Assembly (NCBI GenBank): GCA_964478905.1
Contig: CAYZJZ010000004.1
Location: forward strand, 1-20,692
Direction of reading: 5' to 3'
Source of the DNA: an uncultured Eubacteriales bacterium
Lineage (GTDB): Bacteria > Bacillota > Clostridia > TANB77 > RGIG9151
Length of the DNA stretch: 20,692 bases
Each line of letters begins with the position of its first letter. Position 1 is the stretch's first letter. Of the stretch, positions 1,521 through 20,692 are shown in pieces. The notes under the pieces were generated by a model. The model was given only the letters and a program-made list of their open reading frames with translations. It ran no database searches and was not told the origin of the DNA. The position numbers were made by a program, and so were the translations under genes.

Positions 1521-3071
1521 CTAATAATTATCCGGCAAGTCATTTTCTATCAATACAAACTTCTCTTTATCACACTTTAACTCAGAAATCCACTTTATTC
1601 CTTCATTAAAGCTGTCGGCAACAAATAACTTTTTCTCATCAAATCCACATTCCTCAATTCCATCCCTTATCGGTTTAGTCTGGTCTTTTCCAACCAAAAC
1701 TATATAATCACAAACACCGGTCGCTTGTTTTCCAAACTCTTTATTACAGTCATACTGACGTTCCCCAAGTTCTATCATACCAGGAGTAATTAAAATCTTT
1801 GTACCTTCAAAGCAACTTAAAGTATCAAGTGCAGCTTTTGCTCCAACCGGATTAGAATTATATGCATCATCAATCAACATAGCATTATTTCCCTTTACTA
1901 GCTCTAACCTATGAGGAACAGGGTCTAAAGACCTAATCGCATACACCATATCACTAAAAGGAATTCCAAGCTTATTTCCAATCGCAATTGCCCCTAAGAT
2001 ATTTTCAACATTATGACGTCCAATTAATTTTGTTCTAAAAGTTTCACATTCTCCGTTTTTAGACTTAACCGTAAAAACACTGCCTTTAGCATTTACCCTT
2101 ATATCATACGCAACATATTCCTCATCATTAAACCCATACGTTACAATATTTTTATCAACTTTATTATTTCTAATATATTCATTACTGTAATTTAAGAAAA
2201 CAGCTCCATCTTCAGGAATTGCATCAGCTAATTCAAACTTAGTCTTTATAACATTTTCAATACTAAAAAAAGTTTCTAAATGTTGAGGCCCGATAGAAGA
2301 AATTATACCATATTTCGGATTTACCAAATCACAAATTTCCTTTATGTCGTTTACATGTCTTGCACCCATTTCACACAAAAATATTTCGTGTGTAGCATTT
2401 AATTTTTCACGAATAGTCCTCACAACGCCCAAAGTTGTATTGTAATTTCCGGGTGTCATTAATACATTATATTTTATAGACAAAATCTTATTCAAAAAAT
2501 ATTTCGTGCTTGTTTTTCCATAACTTCCGGTTATACCTATAACCGTAAGACGTGGCATATCTTTTATTATATTTTTCGCTTCTTTTATGAACTTATTATT
2601 AATAGATTTTTCTATCGGAGCATTAATAAATCCTGCTACCATAACCAAAAACGGTAACATTATAGTCCAAACAGCTAATAACAATGCTATTTGCCAAACA
2701 TTAAAAAATCGTATAGATAAAATACACACAATAAAATTAAGTAATCCTAAAGTTATAATAAGCCTTGTAACCCTTCCTGTATAAACAAGTGGCTTCTTTA
2801 AAACCTTCTTTCTATTCACTGTAAAAGTTAAAACATAACTTATTATCGTACCGGTTATAAACAAAACCAGATTATCTGAAAAGCTTATCACAACAGGAAT
2901 AACAAGCCAACAATTCCTAAAAATTATATCCTTTAGGAACTTAGACTTAATCCAATTTATATGAGATAAATTTTGGTAAGAATTAAGTTGATACATATGA
3001 ATATAATAAAGCATCGTTAAACTTATATTAGCAAAAAACATCAATAACAAAAGGCTTATCGCAATAATCAT
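1521..3071 (-). CDS. murF: Mur ligase family protein, MurF-like (UDP-MurNAc-tripeptide--D-Ala-D-Ala ligase), with an N-terminal polytopic membrane domain of about 150 aa
   Basis: Mur ligase P-loop GITGSYGKTSTK, the central and C-terminal Mur ligase domain pattern (DDAYNSNP), and adjacency to ddl as in other Firmicutes. The first ~150 aa form 4-5 hydrophobic helices in place of the usual soluble MurF N-domain. RBS GGGAGG precedes the ATG at 3071. Confidence 0.8.
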   Translation of the reverse strand: MIIAISLLLLMFFANISLTMLYYIHMYQLNSYQNLSHINWIKSKFLKDIIFRNCWLVIPVVISFSDNLVLFITGTIISYVLTFTVNRKKVLKKPLVYTGRVTRLIITLGLLNFIVCILSIRFFNVWQIALLLAVWTIMLPFLVMVAGFINAPIEKSINNKFIKEAKNIIKDMPRLTVIGITGSYGKTSTKYFLNKILSIKYNVLMTPGNYNTTLGVVRTIREKLNATHEIFLCEMGARHVNDIKEICDLVNPKYGIISSIGPQHLETFFSIENVIKTKFELADAIPEDGAVFLNYSNEYIRNNKVDKNIVTYGFNDEEYVAYDIRVNAKGSVFTVKSKNGECETFRTKLIGRHNVENILGAIAIGNKLGIPFSDMVYAIRSLDPVPHRLELVKGNNAMLIDDAYNSNPVGAKAALDTLSCFEGTKILITPGMIELGERQYDCNKEFGKQATGVCDYIVLVGKDQTKPIRDGIEECGFDEKKLFVADSFNEGIKWISELKCDKEKFVLIENDLPDNY

Positions 3072-8666: not shown

Positions 8667-9422
8667 ATGTTAGATATATGCTCCCTCTTTAGTAGTAGTA
8701 AAGGGAATTGTACTTATGTCTTTTCTGATACAACTAAACTACTGGTCGATATAGGAATTAGTTCAAAACGCCTTACTGAGCGATTAATAAAAGATAATAT
8801 ACAGCCTGAAGAAATTCAGGCTATTTTAATCACACATGAACATTCAGATCATACAAAAGGAATACGCGTATTCTCAAAAAAGTTTAATGTTCCTGTGTTT
8901 GCAAGTGAAAAAACTTGGGGAACTTTGGTTTCATTAGAAATACCGGATAAATTAAAACATACTTTCTCTGTCGGAACAAGTTTTAAAATCGGGGACATCT
9001 GTATTAATCCATTTTCCATTCCTCACGATGCAATAGACCCTTGTGGCTTTAGTATGACCAGCGGTAAAAATAAAGTTACAGTAGCAACAGATATGGGACA
9101 TTTAACAAAAGACTTATTATATAACTTTGAAGCCAGTGACTCCATACTGCTTGAAGCTAATCACGATGTTGCTATGTTACGTTCAGGAAATTATCCATAT
9201 TTCTTAAAAGAGCGGGTAATAGGTAACTTCGGTCACTTATCCAATGCGCTTTCAGCTGAAGCTGTTGAATACTTAATAAAAAAAGGCACAAAGAAATTTA
9301 TTCTTGCGCATCTAAGTGAAGAAAACAACATACCTGAATTAGCGTTAGAAACTGTAAGAAGTAGACTTCTTACAAATAACATAGACTTATCCGACATCTC
9401 CATAGAAGTTGCAAAGCCATAG
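8667..9422 (+). CDS. yycJ: MBL-fold metallo-hydrolase, YycJ/WalJ-like
   Basis: Contains THEHSDHTKG (HxHxDH). ANHDVAMLRSGNYPYFLKERV, GHLSN and AHLSEENN closely parallel Bacillus YycJ as I recall it. Confidence 0.8.
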   Translation: MLDICSLFSSSKGNCTYVFSDTTKLLVDIGISSKRLTERLIKDNIQPEEIQAILITHEHSDHTKGIRVFSKKFNVPVFASEKTWGTLVSLEIPDKLKHTFSVGTSFKIGDICINPFSIPHDAIDPCGFSMTSGKNKVTVATDMGHLTKDLLYNFEASDSILLEANHDVAMLRSGNYPYFLKERVIGNFGHLSNALSAEAVEYLIKKGTKKFILAHLSEENNIPELALETVRSRLLTNNIDLSDISIEVAKP

Positions 9423-9453
9423 ATTTTTTATTCACCTTTTTCCAATTATTTTT

Positions 9454-9481
9454 GTATATATTTAGTCCTTTTGGAAATAAT
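9454..9481 (+). promoter_or_regulatory. Possible sporulation-type (sigma-F/G-like) promoter upstream of the coat gene pair; very tentative
   Basis: GTATA (9454-9458), a 14-nt spacer, and GGAAATAAT (9473-9481), which resembles the GYATA / GGnnAnAnT forespore promoter pattern. A weak sigma-A reading (TTCACC ... TATATA) is also possible. Confidence 0.2.
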
Positions 9482-9501
9482 CCTAATAAGAGGTGATAAT
9501 A

Positions 9502-9675
9502 ATGACAGATAAAGAACTTTTATATGTAGAAGATGCGTTAGGTCACGAAAAATTTATGGAAACAAGTAGTCAAAAAGCTTCCGTTCAACTTCAAGACCCA
9601 ACACTCTCAACATATATGGAACAACTCCAAACAAAGCACAATGAGCTTTACAACAAATTTTTAAACTTATTATAG
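9502..9675 (+). CDS. Small hypothetical protein (57 aa), partner of the Coat-F-like protein
   Basis: RBS AGGTGA lies 5-6 nt upstream of the ATG at 9502 (MTDKELLYVEDALGHE...). It is tightly linked to the next gene by a 9-nt gap. Confidence 0.6.
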   Translation: MTDKELLYVEDALGHEKFMETSSQKASVQLQDPTLSTYMEQLQTKHNELYNKFLNLL

Positions 9676-9684
9676 GAGGTTATT

Positions 9685-9927
9685 ATGGAAGACAGAAACT
9701 TAATAGAAGAACAATTATTAGTAATAAAAGGCGTATCTGACCTTTATATGCATGGTGCTATTGAATCTTCTACCGCAGAAGTACATTCAGCATTTAAAGA
9801 CGCTTTAAATGAAACCTTAGACATTCAAAATAAGATTTATAATCTTATGAGCGAAAAAGGTTGGTATAAAACAGAAACAGTAGCTCAAAACAAAATCGAC
9901 ACTACAAAACAAAAATTCTTAAATTAA
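9685..9927 (+). CDS. Coat F domain (spore coat protein F-like) protein
   Basis: LLVIKGVSDLYMHGAIESSTAEVHSAFKDAL...IQNKIYNLMSEKGWY matches the four-helix Coat_F pattern ending in the conserved GWY. RBS GGAGG. Confidence 0.7.
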   Translation: MEDRNLIEEQLLVIKGVSDLYMHGAIESSTAEVHSAFKDALNETLDIQNKIYNLMSEKGWYKTETVAQNKIDTTKQKFLN

Positions 9928-9940
9928 CTTTTTAAAACTT

Positions 9941-9985
9941 TTCGGGGAAGATACATTCAGTATCCTCCCCGAATTTTATTTTTTG
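9941..9985. terminator. Rho-independent terminator between the convergent coat operon and the minus-strand cluster
   Basis: A 14-bp stem, TTCGGGGAAGATAC (9941-9954) pairing with GTATCCTCCCCGAA (9960-9973), with one mismatch, followed by TTTTATTTTTT. Confidence 0.75.
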
Positions 9986-10037
9986 CCACCAGGAATTATC
10001 TTTGAAGAAAAATTTAAGTGACATTAAATCTCATCTC

Positions 10038-10469
10038 TTAGTAAAGTTTCAATATAAGAAAAATTCCAAAAATAAACGCAATAAGTTCGCATAAAATCAA
10101 ACTTCTTTTAATTCTATCCGTTTTTCTTCTATGTCTTGCAAAATTCAAAATAATGCTCATAGTACAAACACATATACAAACAATGGTAACTACCAAAGAA
10201 ATTTTTAGTAAATTCGCTCTCCAAAATTCAATAGGTAGCCAAAGCAATTGGTTTTTATTAATATATGCCACACTTCGACCGGCTTTAGTTATTATGGCCA
10301 AAACTATAAACAAAGCTCCCCACAGCCAAAAGCTCATCAAATTTATAAACTTTAAAATTCCATCGTCGCCCTTTCTTCTCTCCGGCGGTATAATAACTTC
10401 TCTTTCATTTTGATCTAATGACTTTTTTATCAAATTAGCTTGTATTTCATCAAACTCAGATCTATTCAT
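10038..10469 (-). CDS. Small polytopic membrane protein (143 aa), function unknown
   Basis: A charged N-terminal ~40 aa is followed by 3-4 hydrophobic helices. Its ATG shares a base with the stop of the upstream SLH gene (TAATG overlap at 10467-10471), implying translational coupling. Confidence 0.7.
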   Translation of the reverse strand: MNRSEFDEIQANLIKKSLDQNEREVIIPPERRKGDDGILKFINLMSFWLWGALFIVLAIITKAGRSVAYINKNQLLWLPIEFWRANLLKISLVVTIVCICVCTMSIILNFARHRRKTDRIKRSLILCELIAFIFGIFLILKLY

Positions 10470-11011
10470 TATTTCTCACCTTTTATTTTTACATTCATAC
10501 TATTTACTAACATAACACTTACTTCTCCTCTTGTCATAAGATGAGAAGACTCCATATTTTCTAACTCAACATTTAGCTTTAAATCATGAGCCTTATTCAT
10601 CACGTTAGTAGGCCAAGCTCCCTCTATTTCATCGCTATATCCAAGTAAATTTACCAATATCGAACAACATTCAGCATAAGTAATATTATTAGACGGTCTA
10701 AAAGTACCATCTTCATATCCCTTTAAGAAACCTAATTCAGCCGCTCTATTTATAACACCATATGCCCAATGATTTTCCGCAACATCAGAAAATCTACTCT
10801 TTTCAGGAGCTTGATTTTTTCCTATCATTCTTATTATTATAGAACAAAACTCTGCTCTTGTAATATTATTCTCAAGTTGTAGTGTCCCATCAGGATAACC
10901 ATTTAATAGTTTCATTTTTACCAACACATCAGCCGAATCTTCTACAACTCCGGCAAACGAATATGTAAACATTAGCATTACAATTAAAAAACTGCAAATA
11001 ATTTTTCGCAT
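10469..11011 (-). CDS. Secreted S-layer-homology (SLH) domain protein consisting only of a signal peptide plus three SLH motifs
   Basis: Signal peptide MRKIICSFLIVMLMFTYSFA. Canonical SLH motif FSDVAENHWAYGVINRAAELGFLKGYEDGTFRPSNNITYAE, flanked by two further SLH-like motifs (GYPDGTLQLENNITRAEF and HLMTRGEVSVML). RBS GAGGATGTGA. Confidence 0.82.
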   Translation of the reverse strand: MRKIICSFLIVMLMFTYSFAGVVEDSADVLVKMKLLNGYPDGTLQLENNITRAEFCSIIIRMIGKNQAPEKSRFSDVAENHWAYGVINRAAELGFLKGYEDGTFRPSNNITYAECCSILVNLLGYSDEIEGAWPTNVMNKAHDLKLNVELENMESSHLMTRGEVSVMLVNSMNVKIKGEK

Positions 11012-11031
11012 AAAATCACATCCTCAAATTT

Positions 11032-11060
11032 ATATTACTATTTTCAAAATTTCGAGTCAA
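11032..11060 (-). promoter_or_regulatory. Candidate internal sigma-A promoter for the SLH / membrane protein pair
   Basis: On the minus strand: -35 TTGACT (11055-11060), a 17-nt spacer, and -10 TAATAT (11032-11037), in the 62-nt gap after the AAA+ gene. Confidence 0.5.
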
Positions 11061-11073
11061 TGGAAATTATTGA

Positions 11074-14000
11074 TTACATCTGTTCTATATCTTGAGCTTC
11101 TATATAAGTTAATATCTCTTGAGTAAATTCTGCACTTTGTGAAATTCTAACAGCTTGGTTACTTACAGCTCTTTCAAATATATTTCTAACATATCTTCCA
11201 TTACCAAATTTATAATTCCCACGAGCATTATCAAGAACCTCAATTAACTTATTAACAGCATCATTCGAAAGTTTATATCCGTTACTTTCAAACATTTTAG
11301 TACCAATTTCAACAAGCTCCTCCAAGTTATAATCCTGAAACTCAACAACATTCGGGAAACGTGACTTAAGACCTGGATTTATATCTAAAAAGTCTTGCAT
11401 TTCCTTCGTATATCCAGCAAGAATTACAACTAAATTATCCCTATTATCATCCATCAATTTTAATAGTGTATCAATAGACTCTTTGCCAAAATCATTTTGT
11501 CCACCTTGAGACAATGTATATGCTTCATCAACAAACAAAACTCCACCCAAAGCTTCTTTAACTTTTTCAGTAGTCTTTATCGCAGTTTGCCCAACGTACC
11601 CGGCAACCATACCGGCTCTATCAGTTTCAACAACCTTACTTTGTTTTATTATCCCTAAATTATATAATAAATTCGCAACAGCTCTAGCCATCATAGTTTT
11701 TCCTGTCCCGGGATTACCTGTAAATATCATATGAAGCGTTTGAGTATTATTAACAATAAGTCCGGCTTTTTTTCTCTCTTGCATTACTTTTATTCTCGCA
11801 GCCAAAGCTCGAATATAGTTTTTCACAGTTTCAAGTCCGACAATCTTATCAAACTCTTCTTCATAATTAAATTCCTTTTTCTCCAGTTCTTCAATTTCAC
11901 CTAAATCCTCAATTAAAACTTTATTTATTTCTTCTGTCGTGACATCATTTTTAACAATTCTATCACTTTGATTTCTCAATATCTCATCAACAAAGTTCCT
12001 AACCATTCTTCCGTTACCGGATGATGCAGTTGCGTTTTTATGCATATCCTTAATCTTTTCAAACGCTATCCCTTTTGCATCATTATCCAAAACAAAACCT
12101 TTAGAAACAATCATAAGATTAAATATATCAAATAATTCCTCAGCAGAATAGTCAGGGAAATCAATAGAAATAGGGAATCTCGATTCAAGCCCTGAATTAG
12201 CATTCAAAAATTCTTTCATTTCTTTTTTATAACCAGCAAGAATAACAACAATTTCTCCTTTATAATCTTCAACAAGTTTTACTAAAGTATCTATTGCCTC
12301 ACGTCCAAAACTATCTCCATCAGACGCCAAAGCATATGCCTCATCTATAAACAAAACTCCGCCCAATGCATCTTTAAAAACTTCGGTAGTCTTTATCGCA
12401 GTTTGTCCAACATATTCAGCTACTAGCTTTGATCTATCAGCTTCAATCAGTTGTCCACCCTTTAATACTCCCATCTCTTTTAACATATTAGCAGTTATTC
12501 TGGCAACCGTCGTTTTTCCTGTTCCGGGATTTCCCGTATATATCATATTTAACGACTGAGAAGTATCAACAACAATTCCGGCTTCCTTTCTTTTTTGTTG
12601 AGCCTTCAATACATTATATTGTTTCCGTAAAAAATCTTTTACATTTTCAAGCCCTATTACCTTATTTAGTTCACTTTCAAGATCAAATTCTTCCTTTTCC
12701 TCAAGCTCAAAATCAGATAACTTAAGCAACTCATAATCAGTTTCATTTTCTTCATTTATCCTTTTGGACTGGTTTAAAATTGCTTTTTCAACCATATTTC
12801 TAGCCAATCTTCCATTTCCAGTATCATTTCTTCCTTTTATATTCTTCCCCTCAAAATAAGTTATAAGCGGTTCTATACAACTATTGTCTATTACATATTG
12901 GTTAGACACAGCAATTTCATTAGCAATTCTATACATTTCCTCCGGTGTATAATCAGGAAATTCAATATTATTCGGGAACCTCGATTTAAGTCCGGGATTA
13001 CTTTTTAAGAACTCTTGCATTTCATTGGTATATCCGGCAAGAATAACAACTAAATTATCTTTATTGTCTTCCATCATTTTTACCAAAGTGTCAATAGCCT
13101 CAAGTCCAAAACTATCATTCTTATCTCGGTTTAAAGCATACGCCTCATCTATAAATAAAACTCCACCAAGAGCAGAATTTACTTTCTCCGTCGTCTTTTT
13201 AGCAGTTTCTCCAAGATGCTCACCAACTAAATCTCCACGACTAACTTCTACAAATTGCCCCTTAGATAAAATTCCAAGCGCAGCTAAAAATTCAGAAACT
13301 AATCTCGCAATAGTAGTTTTACCAGTGCCGGGATTACCTGAAAAAATCATATTCATAGAAATAGCAGCCGTCTTTAATCCGGCTTCCTCTCTAAGCTTTC
13401 TTGTCGTCATAGTATCTTCAAGCTTTAATACATATTCCTTTACCGAATCAAGTCCAATAATTTTATTTAATTTGTGCTTTACTTCTTCAAGATTTATATT
13501 CTTTTCTTTATGATTAAATTTTTGAAGTGAAATCAAATTATCTTCAACCAAAATTACAATCTCATTTTCAACAGCACCTAAAACCACTTCCGTATCCAAA
13601 GGCGCAGTTCTCTTTAATTTAAACTCCGTAAGAGGACGATAAATATTTCTATCCATCCATAAATTCAAACCATTTAACCCGGTTCTTTTGGTATAAACAT
13701 TTCTTAAAAAATCAATCAACATCCTATCGTATGTAAGTGGAATTGATAATTCAGCCCTCGCCTTTAACACCATCGTATTTATCAAGCTTTGAATCATCTT
13801 TAATATATCTTCTTCACTTAACTCATCAATAGTTAATACATCAATAACTTTCTCAAAAGCATCTTCACCGAAAAATGGTATAAATTCCTCTACATTTCCG
13901 GAAGAAATTAAAACAAAATATTTATTATTAGAATTAACAACAATATTACCATTATTAGTAGGAATTACGCAGTTCCCTTTTTTTATGATTTCAGCAATTG

Positions 14001-14955
14001 TTTTCCTCACATTGCTATTTCCGGCTTTAAAATCTTTAAAAACAATTATTTCTGTTGAACTATTAAGTATATTCATCAATTCAGCTACAAATTGACCAAA
14101 TGTGCTATCTTCATTATATAAACTCAAATCAATAAATACTTCTTTACCTTGAATTAAAGTTTCTTCAAACATCAACTTCGCAATTTCTGAAATCATAGAA
14201 CTTACAAATACGCTTTCAGAAGTTAATACACAAATAGTATTTTTTAAAAGATTAGGAGCAGTCTCAATTACAAAAGGTCTTTTAAACGCAACAAGTAAGT
14301 TAGTTAAAAACTCACTTTGCCCTAAAAAATTTCCAACAACTTTTTGATTTATTTTATTAAAAGTCTCATCTATATCAATCTTTTTTACTTCTTCTTTCGT
14401 TTTCTCAGGCTTAAATAAAGCATTTATTCTATCTTCCGTATACTCAAAAGTAGTTTTATAAAAGTCTAATATTTTTTGTTGCTCATCATTTATAGAATTA
14501 CCAATAGACGCAACCGAATAGAACAAGTAAAATAAATTATCCTCAGCCTTTTCTTGTTCTTGCATTAATCTATCCGAATATATCATATCTAAAAGTTTTT
14601 TTAGCGCAACAATACTATCCTTGTATGTATTTTTGCTAATTCCGAAAAAAGTTTTTTTCTCAGAACTGTACAAGTTAAGAATATCTTTATACTGAAGTCT
14701 CGTTAGCTGTTCATTTTTTATAAAGCTATCCACAACTTGATCACATTTATCAATATTTTCCTCGCTATGTCTAGCAATATTTCCAAAAACAGAAACAATA
14801 TAGCAAAGCATTTCCGGAGCAATTTCCTCAGACTTATAAACTTTATTATTTCTATATCGAAATTCATTTTTACAATAAGGACATATTAAAGTGTTACCGC
14901 CCTTTTCCATTCCCATAGTTCTATTACAATACGGACAAGTTATTGATTTCGGCAT
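11074..14955 (-). CDS. Giant multi-AAA+ ATPase: N-terminal zinc ribbon, helical (TerB-like?) region, degenerate Clp-D2-like AAA domain, and three tandem CbbX/SpoVK/EccA-type AAA+ modules
   Basis: CPYC-x14-CPYC at aa 7-29. Walker A GNPGTGKT occurs three times (aa 540, 809, 1080), and each copy is followed by GGVLF(I/V)DEAY (Walker B). Each is also followed by VVILAGY..EM..FL..N.GL.SRFP...F.DY and a GNGR..RN sensor-type motif, the hallmark layout of the CbbX/SpoVK family. RBS AAGGAGG. Confidence 0.9.
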   Translation of the reverse strand: MPKSITCPYCNRTMGMEKGGNTLICPYCKNEFRYRNNKVYKSEEIAPEMLCYIVSVFGNIARHSEENIDKCDQVVDSFIKNEQLTRLQYKDILNLYSSEKKTFFGISKNTYKDSIVALKKLLDMIYSDRLMQEQEKAEDNLFYLFYSVASIGNSINDEQQKILDFYKTTFEYTEDRINALFKPEKTKEEVKKIDIDETFNKINQKVVGNFLGQSEFLTNLLVAFKRPFVIETAPNLLKNTICVLTSESVFVSSMISEIAKLMFEETLIQGKEVFIDLSLYNEDSTFGQFVAELMNILNSSTEIIVFKDFKAGNSNVRKTIAEIIKKGNCVIPTNNGNIVVNSNNKYFVLISSGNVEEFIPFFGEDAFEKVIDVLTIDELSEEDILKMIQSLINTMVLKARAELSIPLTYDRMLIDFLRNVYTKRTGLNGLNLWMDRNIYRPLTEFKLKRTAPLDTEVVLGAVENEIVILVEDNLISLQKFNHKEKNINLEEVKHKLNKIIGLDSVKEYVLKLEDTMTTRKLREEAGLKTAAISMNMIFSGNPGTGKTTIARLVSEFLAALGILSKGQFVEVSRGDLVGEHLGETAKKTTEKVNSALGGVLFIDEAYALNRDKNDSFGLEAIDTLVKMMEDNKDNLVVILAGYTNEMQEFLKSNPGLKSRFPNNIEFPDYTPEEMYRIANEIAVSNQYVIDNSCIEPLITYFEGKNIKGRNDTGNGRLARNMVEKAILNQSKRINEENETDYELLKLSDFELEEKEEFDLESELNKVIGLENVKDFLRKQYNVLKAQQKRKEAGIVVDTSQSLNMIYTGNPGTGKTTVARITANMLKEMGVLKGGQLIEADRSKLVAEYVGQTAIKTTEVFKDALGGVLFIDEAYALASDGDSFGREAIDTLVKLVEDYKGEIVVILAGYKKEMKEFLNANSGLESRFPISIDFPDYSAEELFDIFNLMIVSKGFVLDNDAKGIAFEKIKDMHKNATASSGNGRMVRNFVDEILRNQSDRIVKNDVTTEEINKVLIEDLGEIEELEKKEFNYEEEFDKIVGLETVKNYIRALAARIKVMQERKKAGLIVNNTQTLHMIFTGNPGTGKTMMARAVANLLYNLGIIKQSKVVETDRAGMVAGYVGQTAIKTTEKVKEALGGVLFVDEAYTLSQGGQNDFGKESIDTLLKLMDDNRDNLVVILAGYTKEMQDFLDINPGLKSRFPNVVEFQDYNLEELVEIGTKMFESNGYKLSNDAVNKLIEVLDNARGNYKFGNGRYVRNIFERAVSNQAVRISQSAEFTQEILTYIEAQDIEQM
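11131..13473 (-). repeat. Three tandem paralogous coding modules of about 0.8 kb (AAA+ modules 1-3) inside the giant ATPase gene
   Basis: Module 1 is about 12751-13473, module 2 about 11941-12672, and module 3 about 11131-11859. DNA-level echoes are visible, for example CTCATCTATAAA(C/T)AAAACTCC near 12340 and 13141, and GTAGTCTTTATCGCAGTTTG(C/T)CCAAC near 11570 and 12388. Confidence 0.7.
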
Positions 14956-15018
14956 TCTTACGCCTCCTTAAAAATTCTACTCCGAATATTTAAATCGGCA
15001 TTTTTAAACAAATCTTAA

Positions 15019-16848
15019 CTATTCCATATCTTTTCTATCAGTAGTAATCAACTTATATTCTTCTTTATTAGCTTCAATTTTCGCCATAATATGATTTTTT
15101 CCGGCAATAAGCAATCCATTTCCTCTTTGTAAAGTTTTTATTTTTATTTCTTCTTCAGTCGATAAATTCACCACATCTTTCAATATCTTACTGTCTTCTT
15201 CTTCAACTTGCAAAATAAATTTCAATGTTGAATTATTTATAATTGCCCTTCCGTATTTTCCACCCTCAAAATCAAAAAAATCCGCAACATCTTGAGTTAT
15301 AGCTGTAGCTCCTCCACCAAATTTTCGTATGGTTTTAAAAATTTTATACACAAACTCAGCAGTATATAAATTCCCTGTACTCCCGATAAGTCTCCAAATT
15401 TCGTCCATATATATAACTTTTTTCTCAGCTCTGTTTTCACAAATTTTATCCCAAAACAAATCCACAATTATATACATACAAATAGGCATATATCTTTCTT
15501 CAAGCTGATGAATATCAGCCACAATTAATTTATTATTAAAATCAACATTAGTACGCCTATTTAAAAAAGACAAACTTCCAAAAATATAAGGCTTTAATAA
15601 AACAGATAATCTTTTTGTTTTATCATCGCTATCAAGTTCATAATATAAATCTTCTAAAATCGGCATATCCTCAGCACTTTTAAAACGCTTTTTTATACTT
15701 ATTTTTTCACATTCTTTATATAGAGTATCATCATCAAAAGTTATTCCAAATTTTAAATAACAATTAATTAACTTTTCCTCTAAAAAAACTTCTTCCTCAT
15801 TTGTCATTTCTCCAAATACCAAACTAAAAAACGTCTTCAATTTTTTTAATTTACTACTCAAATAGCCTCCATTTTCCTCCAAAGCACATTCCCTAATATC
15901 CATAACATTTATAAATGTACTCGACAACGAATTAACATTTATATACAAACCATTTAACGCTTTACATACTTTAGAATATTCTCCATCAGGATCAACAACA
16001 AATTGCCGTATGCCCATATATCTATTCCTTAAAATCATTAATTTAACAAAAAACGATTTACCAGCTCCGCTAGTCCCAAGTACACACATATTCGCATTTT
16101 TATATTTTGAACTATCAAATCTATCTATTATTATAAGAGACTTACTTTGGGAATTTTGACCTATTAAAATTCCTTCTACATCATACAATTCGGTGGAAAT
16201 AAACGGATATGTGCTAGATAGCGATTCAGTTAATACATTTTTAACAGCAGCTTCTTTAATATCTCTATCGTTATTACATACAGGTAACATAGAAGAAAAA
16301 ACTTGTTCTTGTCTAAAAATCGCTCTCCTCGTTTGTAGACCCATTGAAGCACAAATCGCCTCTAATCTTTCTAAGTTAATTTTTAATTGCTCAAAATCTT
16401 TTTCATATACCATACAATACATACATAAATGATATAACTCCTCTTTATTTACTTGAATTTGGTTTCTTATGTATTTAGCATCTTCATATGAGCTTTTTAT
16501 TATATCTATGTCCTGTTGATTTTGGCTTACAGTTTTTAACGCGCCACCCATATCTCCTATATGATATGTTATCTCTCTAATAACCTTCCCGGACTCAAGC
16601 TTTTCATAGAAAATACTCATATCCACATTAAAATCCAATGAAATAAGCGGGGAAAGCCAATTTACCCTCTGTTCCTTAGGATAATTAACAATAATTAAAC
16701 CGGAGTAAAAAAAATTATCCATCTCAAAATAACTGGGATTACTAAAATTCATAACATCCGGAAGTATAAAATCCAACATATCGTTTTTACAAAATCCAAA
16801 TTTATTTAATTCCTCATAATTTTTTATTTTTATATTTTTATTTTTCAT
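15019..16848 (-). CDS. VirB4/TrsE/Orf16-like type IV secretion ATPase (C-terminal ATPase portion)
   Basis: Walker A LGTSGAGKSF (aa 257-266, nt about 16054-16077), Walker B VIYMDEIWRL, and ATAITQD. The N-terminal PDVMNF..YFEMDNFFYSGLIIVNYPKEQRVNWLSPLI matches the 'gyP..v..gWl..L' region typical of Gram-positive conjugative VirB4 proteins. Confidence 0.82.
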   Translation of the reverse strand: MKNKNIKIKNYEELNKFGFCKNDMLDFILPDVMNFSNPSYFEMDNFFYSGLIIVNYPKEQRVNWLSPLISLDFNVDMSIFYEKLESGKVIREITYHIGDMGGALKTVSQNQQDIDIIKSSYEDAKYIRNQIQVNKEELYHLCMYCMVYEKDFEQLKINLERLEAICASMGLQTRRAIFRQEQVFSSMLPVCNNDRDIKEAAVKNVLTESLSSTYPFISTELYDVEGILIGQNSQSKSLIIIDRFDSSKYKNANMCVLGTSGAGKSFFVKLMILRNRYMGIRQFVVDPDGEYSKVCKALNGLYINVNSLSSTFINVMDIRECALEENGGYLSSKLKKLKTFFSLVFGEMTNEEEVFLEEKLINCYLKFGITFDDDTLYKECEKISIKKRFKSAEDMPILEDLYYELDSDDKTKRLSVLLKPYIFGSLSFLNRRTNVDFNNKLIVADIHQLEERYMPICMYIIVDLFWDKICENRAEKKVIYMDEIWRLIGSTGNLYTAEFVYKIFKTIRKFGGGATAITQDVADFFDFEGGKYGRAIINNSTLKFILQVEEEDSKILKDVVNLSTEEEIKIKTLQRGNGLLIAGKNHIMAKIEANKEEYKLITTDRKDME

Positions 16849-17419
16849 ATATACCAGTTCCTATACCCTGAATTTCCGAAATATTTCTATTTAATTCTTT
16901 ATATAAATTATTTATTATGTAAAAGTTATCTTCAGCTAAATCCACAACTTCATTTCCGCACTTTTCCAACGCAATTTTTATCTTCAAAGTTTTCTCTTTT
17001 AAATCTTCACACGCCATATCTCTTGAAATCTTTTTATTACCATTTACCTCAGCAAAGAAAACAACAAAAAACTTACGCGTAATTGTATTTTTTAACGTTT
17101 TCTCATTTACCATTTTTACATATTCATTTCCAAGGAACTTTAACGTATCAGAATTTTCGCTTTCAATATTTTTTAAAACACTAGAAATATGAGCATCTAA
17201 ATCGTTTTTCTTACTTTTAATTAAAATTTGTATTGTAAAATTACAAGTTTTCAAAAAAGTCTTATACGAATACAAAATAGTTTCCTTTTCCTCAATAGAC
17301 TTCAACTCAAAATTTATAGGTAATATTTCAAGTATCTTTAAAAATTCACCATTTTTGTTTTCTATAATTCCATTACTTATATTTTTTATAGGAAACCAAC
17401 TTTTTATAGATTTTCTCAT
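16838..17419 (-). CDS. VirB4 N-terminal-domain-like protein (193 aa), encoded separately
   Basis: WFPIKNISNGIIENKNGEFLKILEILPINFELKSIEEKETILYSYKTFLKTCNFTIQILIKS parallels the N-terminal region of Tn916 Orf16-type VirB4 proteins (IPY..v..nGmIe...g.fsk...l.d.NF...s.deQe.if..y..fLn). The ATG at 17419 follows GGAGG. It overlaps the next gene by 11 nt. Confidence 0.6.
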   Translation of the reverse strand: MRKSIKSWFPIKNISNGIIENKNGEFLKILEILPINFELKSIEEKETILYSYKTFLKTCNFTIQILIKSKKNDLDAHISSVLKNIESENSDTLKFLGNEYVKMVNEKTLKNTITRKFFVVFFAEVNGNKKISRDMACEDLKEKTLKIKIALEKCGNEVVDLAEDNFYIINNLYKELNRNISEIQGIGTGIYEK

Positions 17420-17723
17420 TTTTATCCTCCGTTTTTCTATACACATATACCCTTTCTTTTATAAAAAACTTAATAGCATATTTCATAATATCCATCATAT
17501 TTTCGCCATTTATCCCAACAAACATAAAAATAGCAGGAAACAAAGTAAATATCAAAAAAATACACACTTTTATTTTTATATTAATTTCAATCGCCTTTAG
17601 CAAATAAAAAGCACAGCTCCCTAAAATACCAATAACAAAAATCGCCCTGTAATCAAAAACTCCTAAAAATTTTTCTTTCTTATTATAATTTTGCGGAAAA
17701 AAATATACCTTTTCTTCTTTCAT
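17373..17723 (-). CDS. PrgI-family (VirB3-like) small membrane protein, 116 aa
   Basis: From the ATG at 17723 (RBS GGAAGTGA): a short polar N-terminus FPQNYNKKEKFLGVFDYRAIF, then two TM helices, then GINGENMMDIMKYAIKFFIKERVYVY. This is the same layout as the PrgI/Orf17-type proteins that precede VirB4 in Gram-positive T4SS loci. Confidence 0.65.
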   Translation of the reverse strand: MKEEKVYFFPQNYNKKEKFLGVFDYRAIFVIGILGSCAFYLLKAIEINIKIKVCIFLIFTLFPAIFMFVGINGENMMDIMKYAIKFFIKERVYVYRKTEDKNEKIYKKLVSYKKYK

Positions 17724-17849
17724 TTTTATCACTTCCAACAAAATTTTACACAAAACAGAAGTCATATTCTGTCGAAGTTTGTCGTGGACTTGAAATTTTT
17801 TTGTTGCCATTCGAATTTACTTATTTTTTTATTTGCATGCTTTTTTAAA

Positions 17850-19999: not shown

Positions 20000-20692
20000 T
20001 TAAATTAAAATAGCTCCTATTTGATTTATTATCAATAAAATAGCTCCTTGCATGTATAATGAAAAATACATAAACGAAGTAATAGAATAAATTTCTCCTT
20101 CTACTTTATTAATAAAATCATTAAGGCTCTTTTCATCTACTTTATCTTTCAAAAAATCATATGCAACCTTAGGCGCACGGTATGTAGCATCACTTTCGGT
20201 TATAACTTTCAACATAAAAGTTATTACAAATATAAAAATTTGAATAAGTAAAAGCGTTAATCTCACACTTTCTCGCTTATCATAAAAGAAATAAAGAAAA
20301 GTTCCTAAAAAGTACAAAATATTTATATTAGAAAAAACAAAATGTAACTTTAAAATTCGCTTATCTTGAATACTGTGAACACACTCATGGCATATTTGAA
20401 TAAGCCTTGAACAATCTTTTAAATCTTTAGTATTTTTTATAACAATTTTGTCACTATTTACATTATAAAAACTAGTTTTTTCATTTTCCTCTTTATTTTT
20501 TTCTACACTTGTAGTATAATTATTAAGTTGTTGTAAAACACTAGTGGTAATTACTTGATTATCTCCTAATTTTTCAACTATAGGAGAAATAGTTTCATCA
20601 TATATAACCTCATTCCCATTAGTTTTTTTATAACATATCCAAAACAGGATAGCCGTGCAAAGTATAGAGCTTAATACTAAAATATAATACAT
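20000..20692 (-). CDS. Membrane protein with an HExxH motif (putative zinc metallopeptidase-like); its start coincides with the window edge
   Basis: N-terminal TM anchor, CHECVHSIQ (HExxH), and then 3-4 TM helices. It lies 11 nt upstream of dut on the same strand. The upstream region is not visible, so the start is unverified. Confidence 0.55.
   Translation of the reverse strand: MYYILVLSSILCTAILFWICYKKTNGNEVIYDETISPIVEKLGDNQVITTSVLQQLNNYTTSVEKNKEENEKTSFYNVNSDKIVIKNTKDLKDCSRLIQICHECVHSIQDKRILKLHFVFSNINILYFLGTFLYFFYDKRESVRLTLLLIQIFIFVITFMLKVITESDATYRAPKVAYDFLKDKVDEKSLNDFINKVEGEIYSITSFMYFSLYMQGAILLIINQIGAILI

Follow-up and report, generated by a model that had tools for sequence, protein, structure and literature searches.

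Predicted architecture of a 1293-residue protein in which a dead Clp/Hsp100 D2-like domain precedes three SpoVK/CbbX/EccA-type AAA+ modules, encoded beside VirB4-like genes in an uncultured Eubacteriales bacterium

The characterised members of the SpoVK/CbbX/EccA clade of AAA+ ATPases are single-module hexamers, each with one dedicated client. In the present work, we analyzed a stretch of 20,692 nucleotides from an uncultured Eubacteriales bacterium (GenBank assembly GCA_964478905.1, contig CAYZJZ010000004.1, positions 1 to 20,692; hereafter the window), in which a single gene is predicted to encode a zinc-ribbon/TerB-like head, a dead ClpB-type domain and three intact modules of the SpoVK/CbbX/EccA type. 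The clade has been described as one of dedicated chaperones with variable, substrate-recruiting N-terminal domains, with EccA assisting a secretion system and SpoVK and EccA1 targeting enzymes of envelope synthesis; its signatures are a GY in sensor 1, an N-x-G-L-x-S-R-F box and a second arginine (PMC11513918). Each of the domain families found in our protein is already known, and what is new is their combination in one chain, together with the family of D2-like plus SpoVK-like proteins as a whole, its variable number of modules and its linkage to VirB4. We found no literature on this architecture, including the combinations of VirB4 with SpoVK, of TerB with DjlA and AAA+, and of tandem AAA+ with CbbX. 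In the main text of PMC11513918 the words "tandem" and "multiple copies" are absent, and "Clp" occurs in a keyword and a reference title only.

As shown by the open reading frame (ORF) list and the translation, the gene spans exactly positions 11074 to 14955, the interval given in the initial annotation, and reads on the minus strand as 1293 codons; the plus strand across this interval is broken by many stops. Full-length orthologues of the protein, 57–99% identical, are present in independent assemblies. All of the peptides that the initial annotation had cited were located in the translation at the mapped positions, namely IVSVFGNIARHSEENIDKCDQVV at residues 53–75, LFYSVASIGNSINDEQQKILDFY at residues 144–166, VLTSESVF at residues 243–250, IIVFKDFKAG at residues 303–312, and the acidic linkers EEKEEFDLESE at residues 752–762 and EELEKKEFNYEEEF at residues 1022–1035. 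The features of the gene are as follows.

11074..14955, minus strand: gene for the 1293-residue multi-domain AAA+ protein, stop codon included (ORF list and translation)
14824..14955, minus strand: four-cysteine zinc ribbon, CPYC-x14-CPYC, residues 1–44 (invariant cysteines, predicted strands)
14416..14823, minus strand: divergent TerB-like helical domain, residues 45–180 (transitive homology, helical model)
13516..14373, minus strand: Clp/Hsp100 D2-like AAA+ domain, large subdomain plus D2-small, predicted to be dead, residues 195–480 (profile, AlphaFold, Foldseek)
14206..14229, minus strand: Walker A position of the D2-like domain, VLTSESVF, P-loop lost, residues 243–250 (family alignment)
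14020..14049, minus strand: Walker B position of the D2-like domain, IIVFKDFKAG, DE changed to KD, residues 303–312 (aligns with the Clp "FDEIEKAH" box)
12688..13482, minus strand: module 1, AAA+ plus lid, residues 492–756 (289 bits against TIGR02881; the most conserved part)
11872..12678, minus strand: module 2, the middle one, residues 760–1028 (291 bits against TIGR02881; dispensable in some relatives)
11077..11865, minus strand: module 3, the last one, residues 1031–1293 (307.5 bits against TIGR02881; CbbX 3zuh, E value 1e-58)

The protein was matched in three stretches by PF00004 (AAA; E value 8e-59) and by PF17866 (AAA_lid_6; 1e-37), so that the presence of three AAA modules greatly exceeds chance expectation. 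Over the whole protein, the NCBIfam models gave 859 bits for TIGR02881 (spore_V_K), 688 bits for EccA and 641 bits for CbbX, again in three stretches each. The single modules scored 289–308 bits against SpoVK, 208–254 bits against EccA and 206–235 bits against CbbX, and spore_V_K was the top-scoring curated model for every one of them. The match to the EccA model was limited to its positions 272–550, the ATPase part, and no tetratricopeptide repeat (TPR) domain was found in the query by Pfam. These model matches and the clade signatures bear out the assignment of the modules to the CbbX/SpoVK/EccA type in the initial annotation. The equivalog cut-offs of these models are 422.95 bits for SpoVK (TIGR02881), 466.65 bits for EccA (TIGR03922) and 459.25 bits for CbbX (TIGR02880), and no single module reaches any of the three. 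Because every single-module score falls well below these cut-offs, the modules belong to the SpoVK-CbbX-EccA clade and are orthologous to none of its named members.

Each module carries a Walker A motif GNPGTGKT (at residues 540, 808 and 1080), a Walker B motif VLF[IV]DE (599, 867 and 1139), an SRF arginine finger (658, 925 and 1198) and a GNGR sensor 2 (713, 980 and 1251), and in all three the sensor-1 GY signature appears as "ILAGY" before a TNEM, KKEM or TKEM segment. The N-[PST]-G-L-x-S-R-F box is found in all three modules of the query and in 5 of 6 orthologues, module 1 of the relative P0019 having LATGLKSRF instead. Its asparagine stands six positions before the arginine here, compared with the four stated in PMC11513918. 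The intact Walker A, Walker B and arginine sensor motifs ascribed earlier to each module were thus all located, and Walker A, Walker B, the arginine finger and sensor 2 proved invariant in all modules across six orthologues of 57–83% overall identity, module 1 being the most conserved domain (97–62% identity to orthologues). Strong purifying selection has thus preserved all catalytic motifs in the three modules. The pore loops read H/Y-x-G in module 1 and Y-V-G throughout in modules 2 and 3. In the pore loop of module 1 (residues 572–584, positions 13204–13242), the query and its closer relatives have a histidine (GEH[LV]GET); the aromatic position is likewise histidine in the distant P0019 (GSHPGET) and tyrosine in P0013 and P0014 (G[EA]YAGET).

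SpoVK of Bacillus subtilis (TIGR02881; PMC11513918) provides the top curated model for each module, the context is envelope-related in both cases, and the host here is spore-former-like; however, SpoVK has a single module and, at its N-terminus, a short domain rich in beta strands, whereas the architecture described here is five times larger, has zinc-ribbon, TerB-like and Clp D2-like parts at its N-terminus and scores under the SpoVK cut-off. CbbX, the red-type Rubisco activase (TIGR02880; 3zuh, 3syl), is the nearest solved structure by sequence (3zuh, E value 1e-58) and has the GY sensor-1, NPGLxSRF and GNGR motifs and the AAA_lid_6 lid in common with our modules, but it is a single module of ~290 residues acting as a homohexamer on Rubisco, the scores here stay far from its cut-off, and no Rubisco genes lie near this gene. 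The next closest solved structure by sequence is EccA1 (TIGR03922; 9lur, E value 2e-54), which belongs to the same clade, has a variable N-terminal recruiting domain ahead of its ATPase and, like our protein, has as its genetic neighbour a secretion ATPase that is membrane-associated and belongs to a different P-loop class. EccA is built of TPR repeats and one module, whereas the chain here has a zinc-ribbon/TerB-like head, a dead D2-like domain and three modules that score under the EccA cut-off, and the partner here is VirB4-like where that of EccA is the FtsK-like EccC. The EccC/EssC proteins themselves offer a likeness in layout, a single chain in which a degenerate domain is followed by three live P-loop domains (general knowledge and PMC11090510) and an association with an envelope export machine; EccC is, however, membrane-anchored and of the FtsK/HerA class, and shows no homology to the AAA+ protein described here.

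When the query was searched alone, residues 1–491 gave no useful Pfam or PDB sequence match, and family profiles were needed. A profile of 35 middle domains matched the D2 domains of ClpC, ClpB, Hsp104, ClpE, human CLPB and ClpA with E values from 1e-24 to 1e-15, and the match (profile positions 14–316) spans both the large and the D2-small subdomains; PF10431 (ClpB_D2-small) was found in 15 of the 35 relatives and AAA_2 in 6. AlphaFold modelled residues 185–490 with a predicted local distance difference test score (pLDDT) of 89.4 and a predicted template modelling score (pTM) of 0.74. The top PDB match of Foldseek was nucleotide-binding domain 2 of ClpB (4lj4; E value 4e-15, template modelling (TM) score 0.71), followed by ClpC1, ClpA and Skd3. 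As judged from profile and fold, residues 195–480 thus descend from a Clp/Hsp100 D2 domain. The initial annotation had proposed a Clp D2-type pseudo-ATPase at residues ~215–350; the D2 kinship and the AAA-like fold of this region were both recovered, and the domain is larger than had been suggested, at residues ~195–480 with the D2-small subdomain included.

In an alignment of 72 family members, the Walker A column of the D2-like domain reads G..G.G[KR]H in the other clades and is without a Gly/Lys motif in the zinc-ribbon clade to which the query belongs; G[KR]H is present in the P-loop of 41 of 71 family members. At the position of the Clp "FDEIEKAH" box, most of the wider family has h-h-h-F-[ED]-N-x-E-x-x-H, and a canonical Walker B DE was found in the D2-like domain of no family member. 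In the profile alignment, the Clp sensor-2 "GARPL" aligns to "tGvkg" of the profile, which is TGLNG in the query. Residues 581–610 of ClpC, which we take to be the stretch holding the pore loop, were left unaligned, with 30 residues against 17 profile positions. Because both Walker motifs are lost, and apparently the arginine of sensor 2 as well, the D2-like domain is predicted to be catalytically dead, without the ability to hydrolyse ATP. It is 78–32% identical across orthologues, compared with the 97–62% of module 1. The likeness to ClpB, ClpC and Hsp104 thus extends to their D2 tier, D2-small included, and to the tandem arrangement of AAA+ domains in a single chain; however, the D2-like domain here comes first in order, with no D1 before it, is apparently dead and is followed by modules of the classical clade. 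Neither Clp_N, nor the middle domain, nor the ClpP-binding loop was detected in the query in a Pfam scan.

At the N-terminus, the two CPYC pairs start at residues 7 and 25, spaced by 14 residues, and C7, C10, C25 and C28 are unchanged in all aligned relatives, in agreement with the zinc finger called earlier at residues 7–29. AlphaFold places five short strands in residues 1–44 (pLDDT 84–93), and the zinc-ribbon matches of this segment in Pfam and Foldseek were weak only. In the head model as a whole (pLDDT 89.9), a bundle of seven helices comes after a small beta ribbon. By phmmer, residues 2–172 were matched by zinc-ribbon plus TerB proteins, some with a J domain, at E values of 1e-12 to 1e-15; the query aligned with the relative P0060 over residues 4–172 (2e-15) and with P0123 over residues 2–171 (7e-12). 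In these relatives, PF05099 (TerB) is found at 1.6e-15 to 3e-08 over the region aligned with the query, for example at residues 134–244 of P0060 (1.6e-15) and 112–221 of P0123 (1.1e-14), and in several of them a J domain follows TerB (2e-14 to 1.5e-10). Across the alignment, both "A-K-A-D-G ... E" repeats decay stepwise toward ARHSEEN and ASIGNSINDEQ of the query. No direct Pfam TerB match to the query was obtained with residues 1–491 at an E value of 10 or with residues 1–190 at an E value of 1, and the orthologue P0010 reached 0.068 at best. In the fold search, 2h5n, presumably a TerB-family structure, scored an E value of about 4 and a TM score of 0.41 against the head model, which is not significant. 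Because there is no direct TerB match and the fold search was not significant, residues 45–180 are named TerB-like by transitive homology only. The resemblance to TerB/DjlA N-terminal domains noted initially therefore stands through the TerB/J-domain relatives and finds no counterpart in direct Pfam or fold matches.

Relatives of residues 1–180 also occur as free-standing proteins of 165–350 residues, several of which have an N-terminal hydrophobic segment followed by the zinc ribbon, TerB and a J domain. The nearest relatives of the head thus have the DjlA-type layout of membrane anchor, TerB-like domain and J domain, with a zinc ribbon in addition, and both kinds of protein join a TerB-type head to an effector with a chaperone function. 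The effector here is a covalently attached AAA+ motor, whereas that of DjlA is an Hsp70-recruiting J domain; moreover, our protein has no membrane anchor and its TerB acidic motifs have decayed. A common zinc-ribbon/TerB head would link two chaperone strategies, fusion to a J domain and fusion to an AAA+ motor.

The three modules are equidistant from one another, all pairs sharing 48.6–49.6% of their amino acids and 69.4–69.7% of their nucleotides over about 410–430 nucleotides. In a neighbor-joining tree of 72 modules from 31 proteins (without support values), the modules grouped by position as first, middle or last, and this grouping holds across very divergent relatives, including three-module proteins without the zinc ribbon. 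Because the modules are equidistant and group by position across distant relatives, the triplication is predicted to be old. These data do not support the earlier suggestion that modules 2 and 3 arose by a relatively recent duplication and share a special likeness at the DNA level.

An exhaustive search gave 109 representative relatives, 71 of which contain the D2-like domain: 33 of these have one module, 10 two, 12 three and 1 four, and 15 are fragments. Within the GTDB set, no more than four species-level genomes contain the zinc-ribbon clade, all from uncultured gut Clostridia or Eubacteriales, and one three-module member is found in Leptospira alstonii. Where relatives have a database name at all, it is "AAA family ATPase"; triple-module proteins identical in kind to ours are few, metagenomic and generically named. 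Tandem SpoVK-type proteins without the D2-like domain exist, one of them fungal, so that tandem modules as such are not unique. Among close relatives, the middle module was lost cleanly twice, independently: P0009 lacks residues 768–1039, with the junction inside a repeated KVIGLE motif, and P0011 and P0012 lack residues 757–1026, with the junction in the acidic linker. We rejected the possibility that the two- and three-module forms reflect misassembly or collapsed repeats, since the modules are only ~70% identical in DNA and both forms recur in independent assemblies. A metagenome DNA pattern for G-Q-x6-L-x2-A-F-K-R-P-F gave three loci whose ORF lists hold no recognisable AAA+ gene at the matching position, and these chance-like hits were set aside. 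The family thus presents the same motor in one to four consecutive copies, preceded by a dead domain from another AAA+ lineage, that of the Hsp100 D2. Together with the clean loss of a whole module between close relatives, this amounts to an experiment of nature that bears on the number of ATPase tiers required by an unfoldase and on the contribution of a dead one.

Six minus-strand genes lie close together here, overlapping or with gaps of at most 63 nucleotides between them, and the AAA+ gene is the fourth. The other five are as follows.

17373..17810, minus strand: operon gene 1, small membrane protein, weakly PrgI-like (VirB3-like) (PF12666, E value 0.0036)
16838..17446, minus strand: TrsD/TraC-like protein, corresponding to the N-terminal part of VirB4 (VirB4 and TrsD models)
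15019..16848, minus strand: VirB4-like ATPase body (PF19044, 2e-25; NF045971, 1e-94, model positions 183–751)
10469..11011, minus strand: secreted protein with S-layer homology (SLH) repeats only (PF00395, 6e-22)
10038..10469, minus strand: last operon gene, 143-residue multi-pass membrane protein (three to four hydrophobic segments)

The PrgI-like protein has hydrophobic segments at residues 48–103 and is conserved in four related loci (L005, L006, L008 and L012). The TrsD-like protein matches positions 11–148 of the CD1110-type VirB4 model, and its orthologues carry PF26593 (TraC-like). The VirB4-like body has an intact Walker A motif (GTSGAGKS) and a VIYMDE box of the Walker B type. The SLH protein begins with a hydrophobic, signal-like segment at residues 3–24, and its gene lies downstream of the ATPase gene in L005–L008 and L012. 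The last gene product had no Pfam or PADLOC match and stands without a family assignment. The six-gene set is found at the same chromosomal place in L005, L006, L008 and L012, where the relatives are 72–83% identical; in L007, which is cut at the contig start, the operon is visible from the C-terminal end of the TrsD-like gene onward, and in L011, which holds a 66% identical orthologue, the end of a VirB4 gene lies upstream of the AAA+ gene.

The flanks of the operon are housekeeping in nature (ddl, a Mur ligase gene, rimO, a GT2 glycosyltransferase gene, mgtC, murA, and genes for an MBL hydrolase, CoatF, an FAD enzyme and a dUTPase), and its G+C content is like that of the surroundings. No tRNA gene is present in the window, and none of the scanned window ORFs matched an integrase or relaxase. 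The conjugative type IV set is incomplete, consisting of the VirB4-like, the TrsD-like and the weakly PrgI-like genes only, with the other window ORFs housekeeping or unmatched and none of them matching a coupling protein, a relaxase, a VirB6/VirB8-like channel component or a wall hydrolase. No conserved neighbor gene was seen around five relatives from the profile search. A scan for promoters and terminators stayed at chance level, with 42 sites versus 45 expected.

Our preferred reading, in which we place about even confidence, is that the protein is a cytoplasmic, ATP-driven remodelling chaperone of the SpoVK/CbbX/EccA clade, made as a stack of four domains and serving a VirB4-type envelope apparatus. 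That it is a dedicated remodelling chaperone is suggested by its clade relatives, which are such. Its most likely job would be an EccA-like accessory role for an apparatus of the VirB4 type associated with the cell envelope, since it is co-operonic with PrgI-like, split VirB4-like, SLH and conserved small membrane proteins. The head would direct the protein to its client or to its place of action, the live tiers would pull a limited set of client proteins by their pore-loop residues, and components or clients of the apparatus would be unfolded, released or assembled. Several observations weigh against this reading. The PF12666 match of the PrgI-like protein (17373..17810) falls below the Pfam cut-off, as the CD1110-type VirB4 and TrsD matches of the next protein (16838..17446) fall below theirs. 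The 66% orthologue has neither the SLH nor the membrane gene, and the 58% orthologues (L003, L004 and L010), of the same architecture, are without the VirB4, SLH and membrane genes, so that the ATPase does not strictly depend on these partners; single-module relatives stand in unrelated contexts. The fold search with the head gave no significant PDB match (best E value 0.7), and its identity as TerB-like comes through transitive homology; the stacked geometry is one that we infer, and the four-module form is a single metagenomic sequence.

Other roles for the gene have to be weighed against the EccA-like one. We consider it unlikely, with a minor share of the probability, that the protein acts apart from the VirB4 genes, their linkage being incidental, as a chaperone that activates or disassembles a cytosolic enzyme of peptidoglycan or wall-polymer synthesis in the way of SpoVK on MurG and EccA1 on mycolate enzymes, possibly during sporulation. 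This role has a precedent in the clade (PMC11513918), and spore_V_K is the top model for each module. The window flanks hold ddl, the Mur ligase gene, murA, the GT2 glycosyltransferase gene and CoatF, and a VirB4-less 58% orthologue adjoins alr (alanine racemase), femAB and an Amidase_3 gene; however, these wall genes occupy other strands or belong to separate transcription units, the modules score well under the SpoVK cut-off and lack the SpoVK N-terminal domain, and the tight operon with the VirB4-like, SLH and membrane genes has been kept over 66–99% identity. We find it scarcely credible that the locus is the decaying remnant of a conjugative element carrying the AAA+ gene as passenger cargo with no joint function. 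Genes of the PrgI-like, TrsD-like and VirB4-like kinds typically belong to Gram-positive conjugation modules, and the window has none of the remaining type IV secretion genes, but all ORFs and Walker motifs are intact, the gene set and order are kept at 72–99% identity, the membrane protein is 91–93% conserved, no repeat border was found, and integrase, relaxase and tRNA genes were likewise absent. An anti-phage or conflict function, with the operon as an abortive-infection or exclusion module, is very improbable. Defence islands are places where TerB domains, HerA/VirB4-type ATPases and IetA/IteA-like AAA+ proteins can each be encountered, and PADLOC returned IetA (5e-25) and TRIP13 (4e-20) for the AAA+ protein and mad8 (2e-22) and DndH (2e-11) for the VirB4-like protein, with NCBIfam adding IteA (7.5e-24) for the former; these scores are far under the family cut-offs (IteA, 84.6 versus 510 bits), and we rejected them as generic P-loop similarity. 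The operon moreover lies at one syntenic site between housekeeping genes in several species, its G+C content is that of its surroundings, and no nuclease, methylase or toxin gene is nearby. Extending the preferred EccA-like reading, there is a rather slim chance that the operon constitutes a previously unrecognised envelope export or assembly apparatus of gut Clostridia that form spores, with a domesticated VirB3/VirB4-type motor served by a four-tier AAA+ stack of one dead, Clp-derived tier and three live tiers of the SpoVK type. If this were true, the SpoVK/CbbX/EccA clade would gain its first multi-tier member, functionally analogous to the type VII EccA-EccC pairing, and the zinc-ribbon/TerB head would be a client or membrane sensor. 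The conserved presence of a minimal VirB3/VirB4 set and an SLH protein in one operon suggests that uncultured gut Clostridia may possess an envelope machine that nobody has yet studied.

How the modules would be assembled admits two arrangements, both of them raised in the initial annotation. The three live modules may form coaxially stacked hexameric tiers, by analogy with the tandem AAA+ domains of ClpB, p97 and NSF and with the degenerate-plus-three arrangement of EccC/EssC, and the dead D2-like domain would then be a non-catalytic entry or scaffold ring. Alternatively, two chains of three linked modules could close one six-membered planar ring, a pseudo-hexamer reminiscent of dynein or midasin, with the two D2-like domains and heads on top as adaptors. 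Three times two makes six, the acidic linkers of 11–14 residues could bridge neighbouring protomers, and the positional specialisation of the modules fits three interface types. We nevertheless regard the planar ring as doubtful. Proteins with a single module are the most frequent in the family and can form a ring only from six chains, and four modules per chain cannot be fitted evenly into a ring of six. The loss of a middle module would demand a switch from dimer to trimer and a novel interface between modules 1 and 3, and where bacterial proteins with tandem AAA+ domains have been characterised (ClpA/B/C), the domains are generally known to be stacked. Middle-module loss is compatible with a stack because it leaves the homotypic interfaces within each ring untouched. 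The range of one to four modules and the two clean middle-module deletions therefore favour stacked tiers over a planar dimer ring, as far as sequence comparison can indicate.

Some further features of the locus were recorded. The PrgI-like and TrsD-like ORFs overlap by 74 nucleotides as listed (17373–17446), with the true start of the second gene uncertain; relatives show an overlap of 47 nucleotides (in L006, 1319–1669 and 1623–2210). The minimal VirB3/VirB4 set at 15019–17810 stands in a housekeeping region without a coupling protein, relaxase or channel gene, and it holds the same chromosomal place in several species. The 143-residue membrane protein is the best-conserved product of the operon, at 91–93% where the SLH and VirB4-like proteins are at 82–84%. 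An 80-residue ORF at 9685–9927 on the plus strand has counterparts in L005 and L006 that carry PF07875 (Coat_F), and this nearby CoatF gene suggests that the host may be a spore former. In L006, two radical-SAM genes and a HydF-type GTPase gene (HydE/G/F-like) lie between the last operon gene and CoatF (9188–13170); ORFs of matching sizes occur in L008 at about 11809–15541, and the window is without this block. The Mur-ligase-family protein at 1521–3071 (minus strand, 516 residues) matches MurF over residues 175–507 only, at 238.6 bits against a cut-off of 288.6, and its ~170 N-terminal residues have no assignment. An ORF on the minus strand that reaches the window end (20000–20692) encodes a hydrophobic protein with no family match and an H-E-C-V-H motif of the HExxH type, which could be metalloprotease-like in the membrane. 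Downstream of the VirB4-less orthologue in L003, short tandem DNA repeats at 15316–15585, just upstream of recG, read as repeated peptides (KKKEISQNGNVPDA, three times) in several frames.

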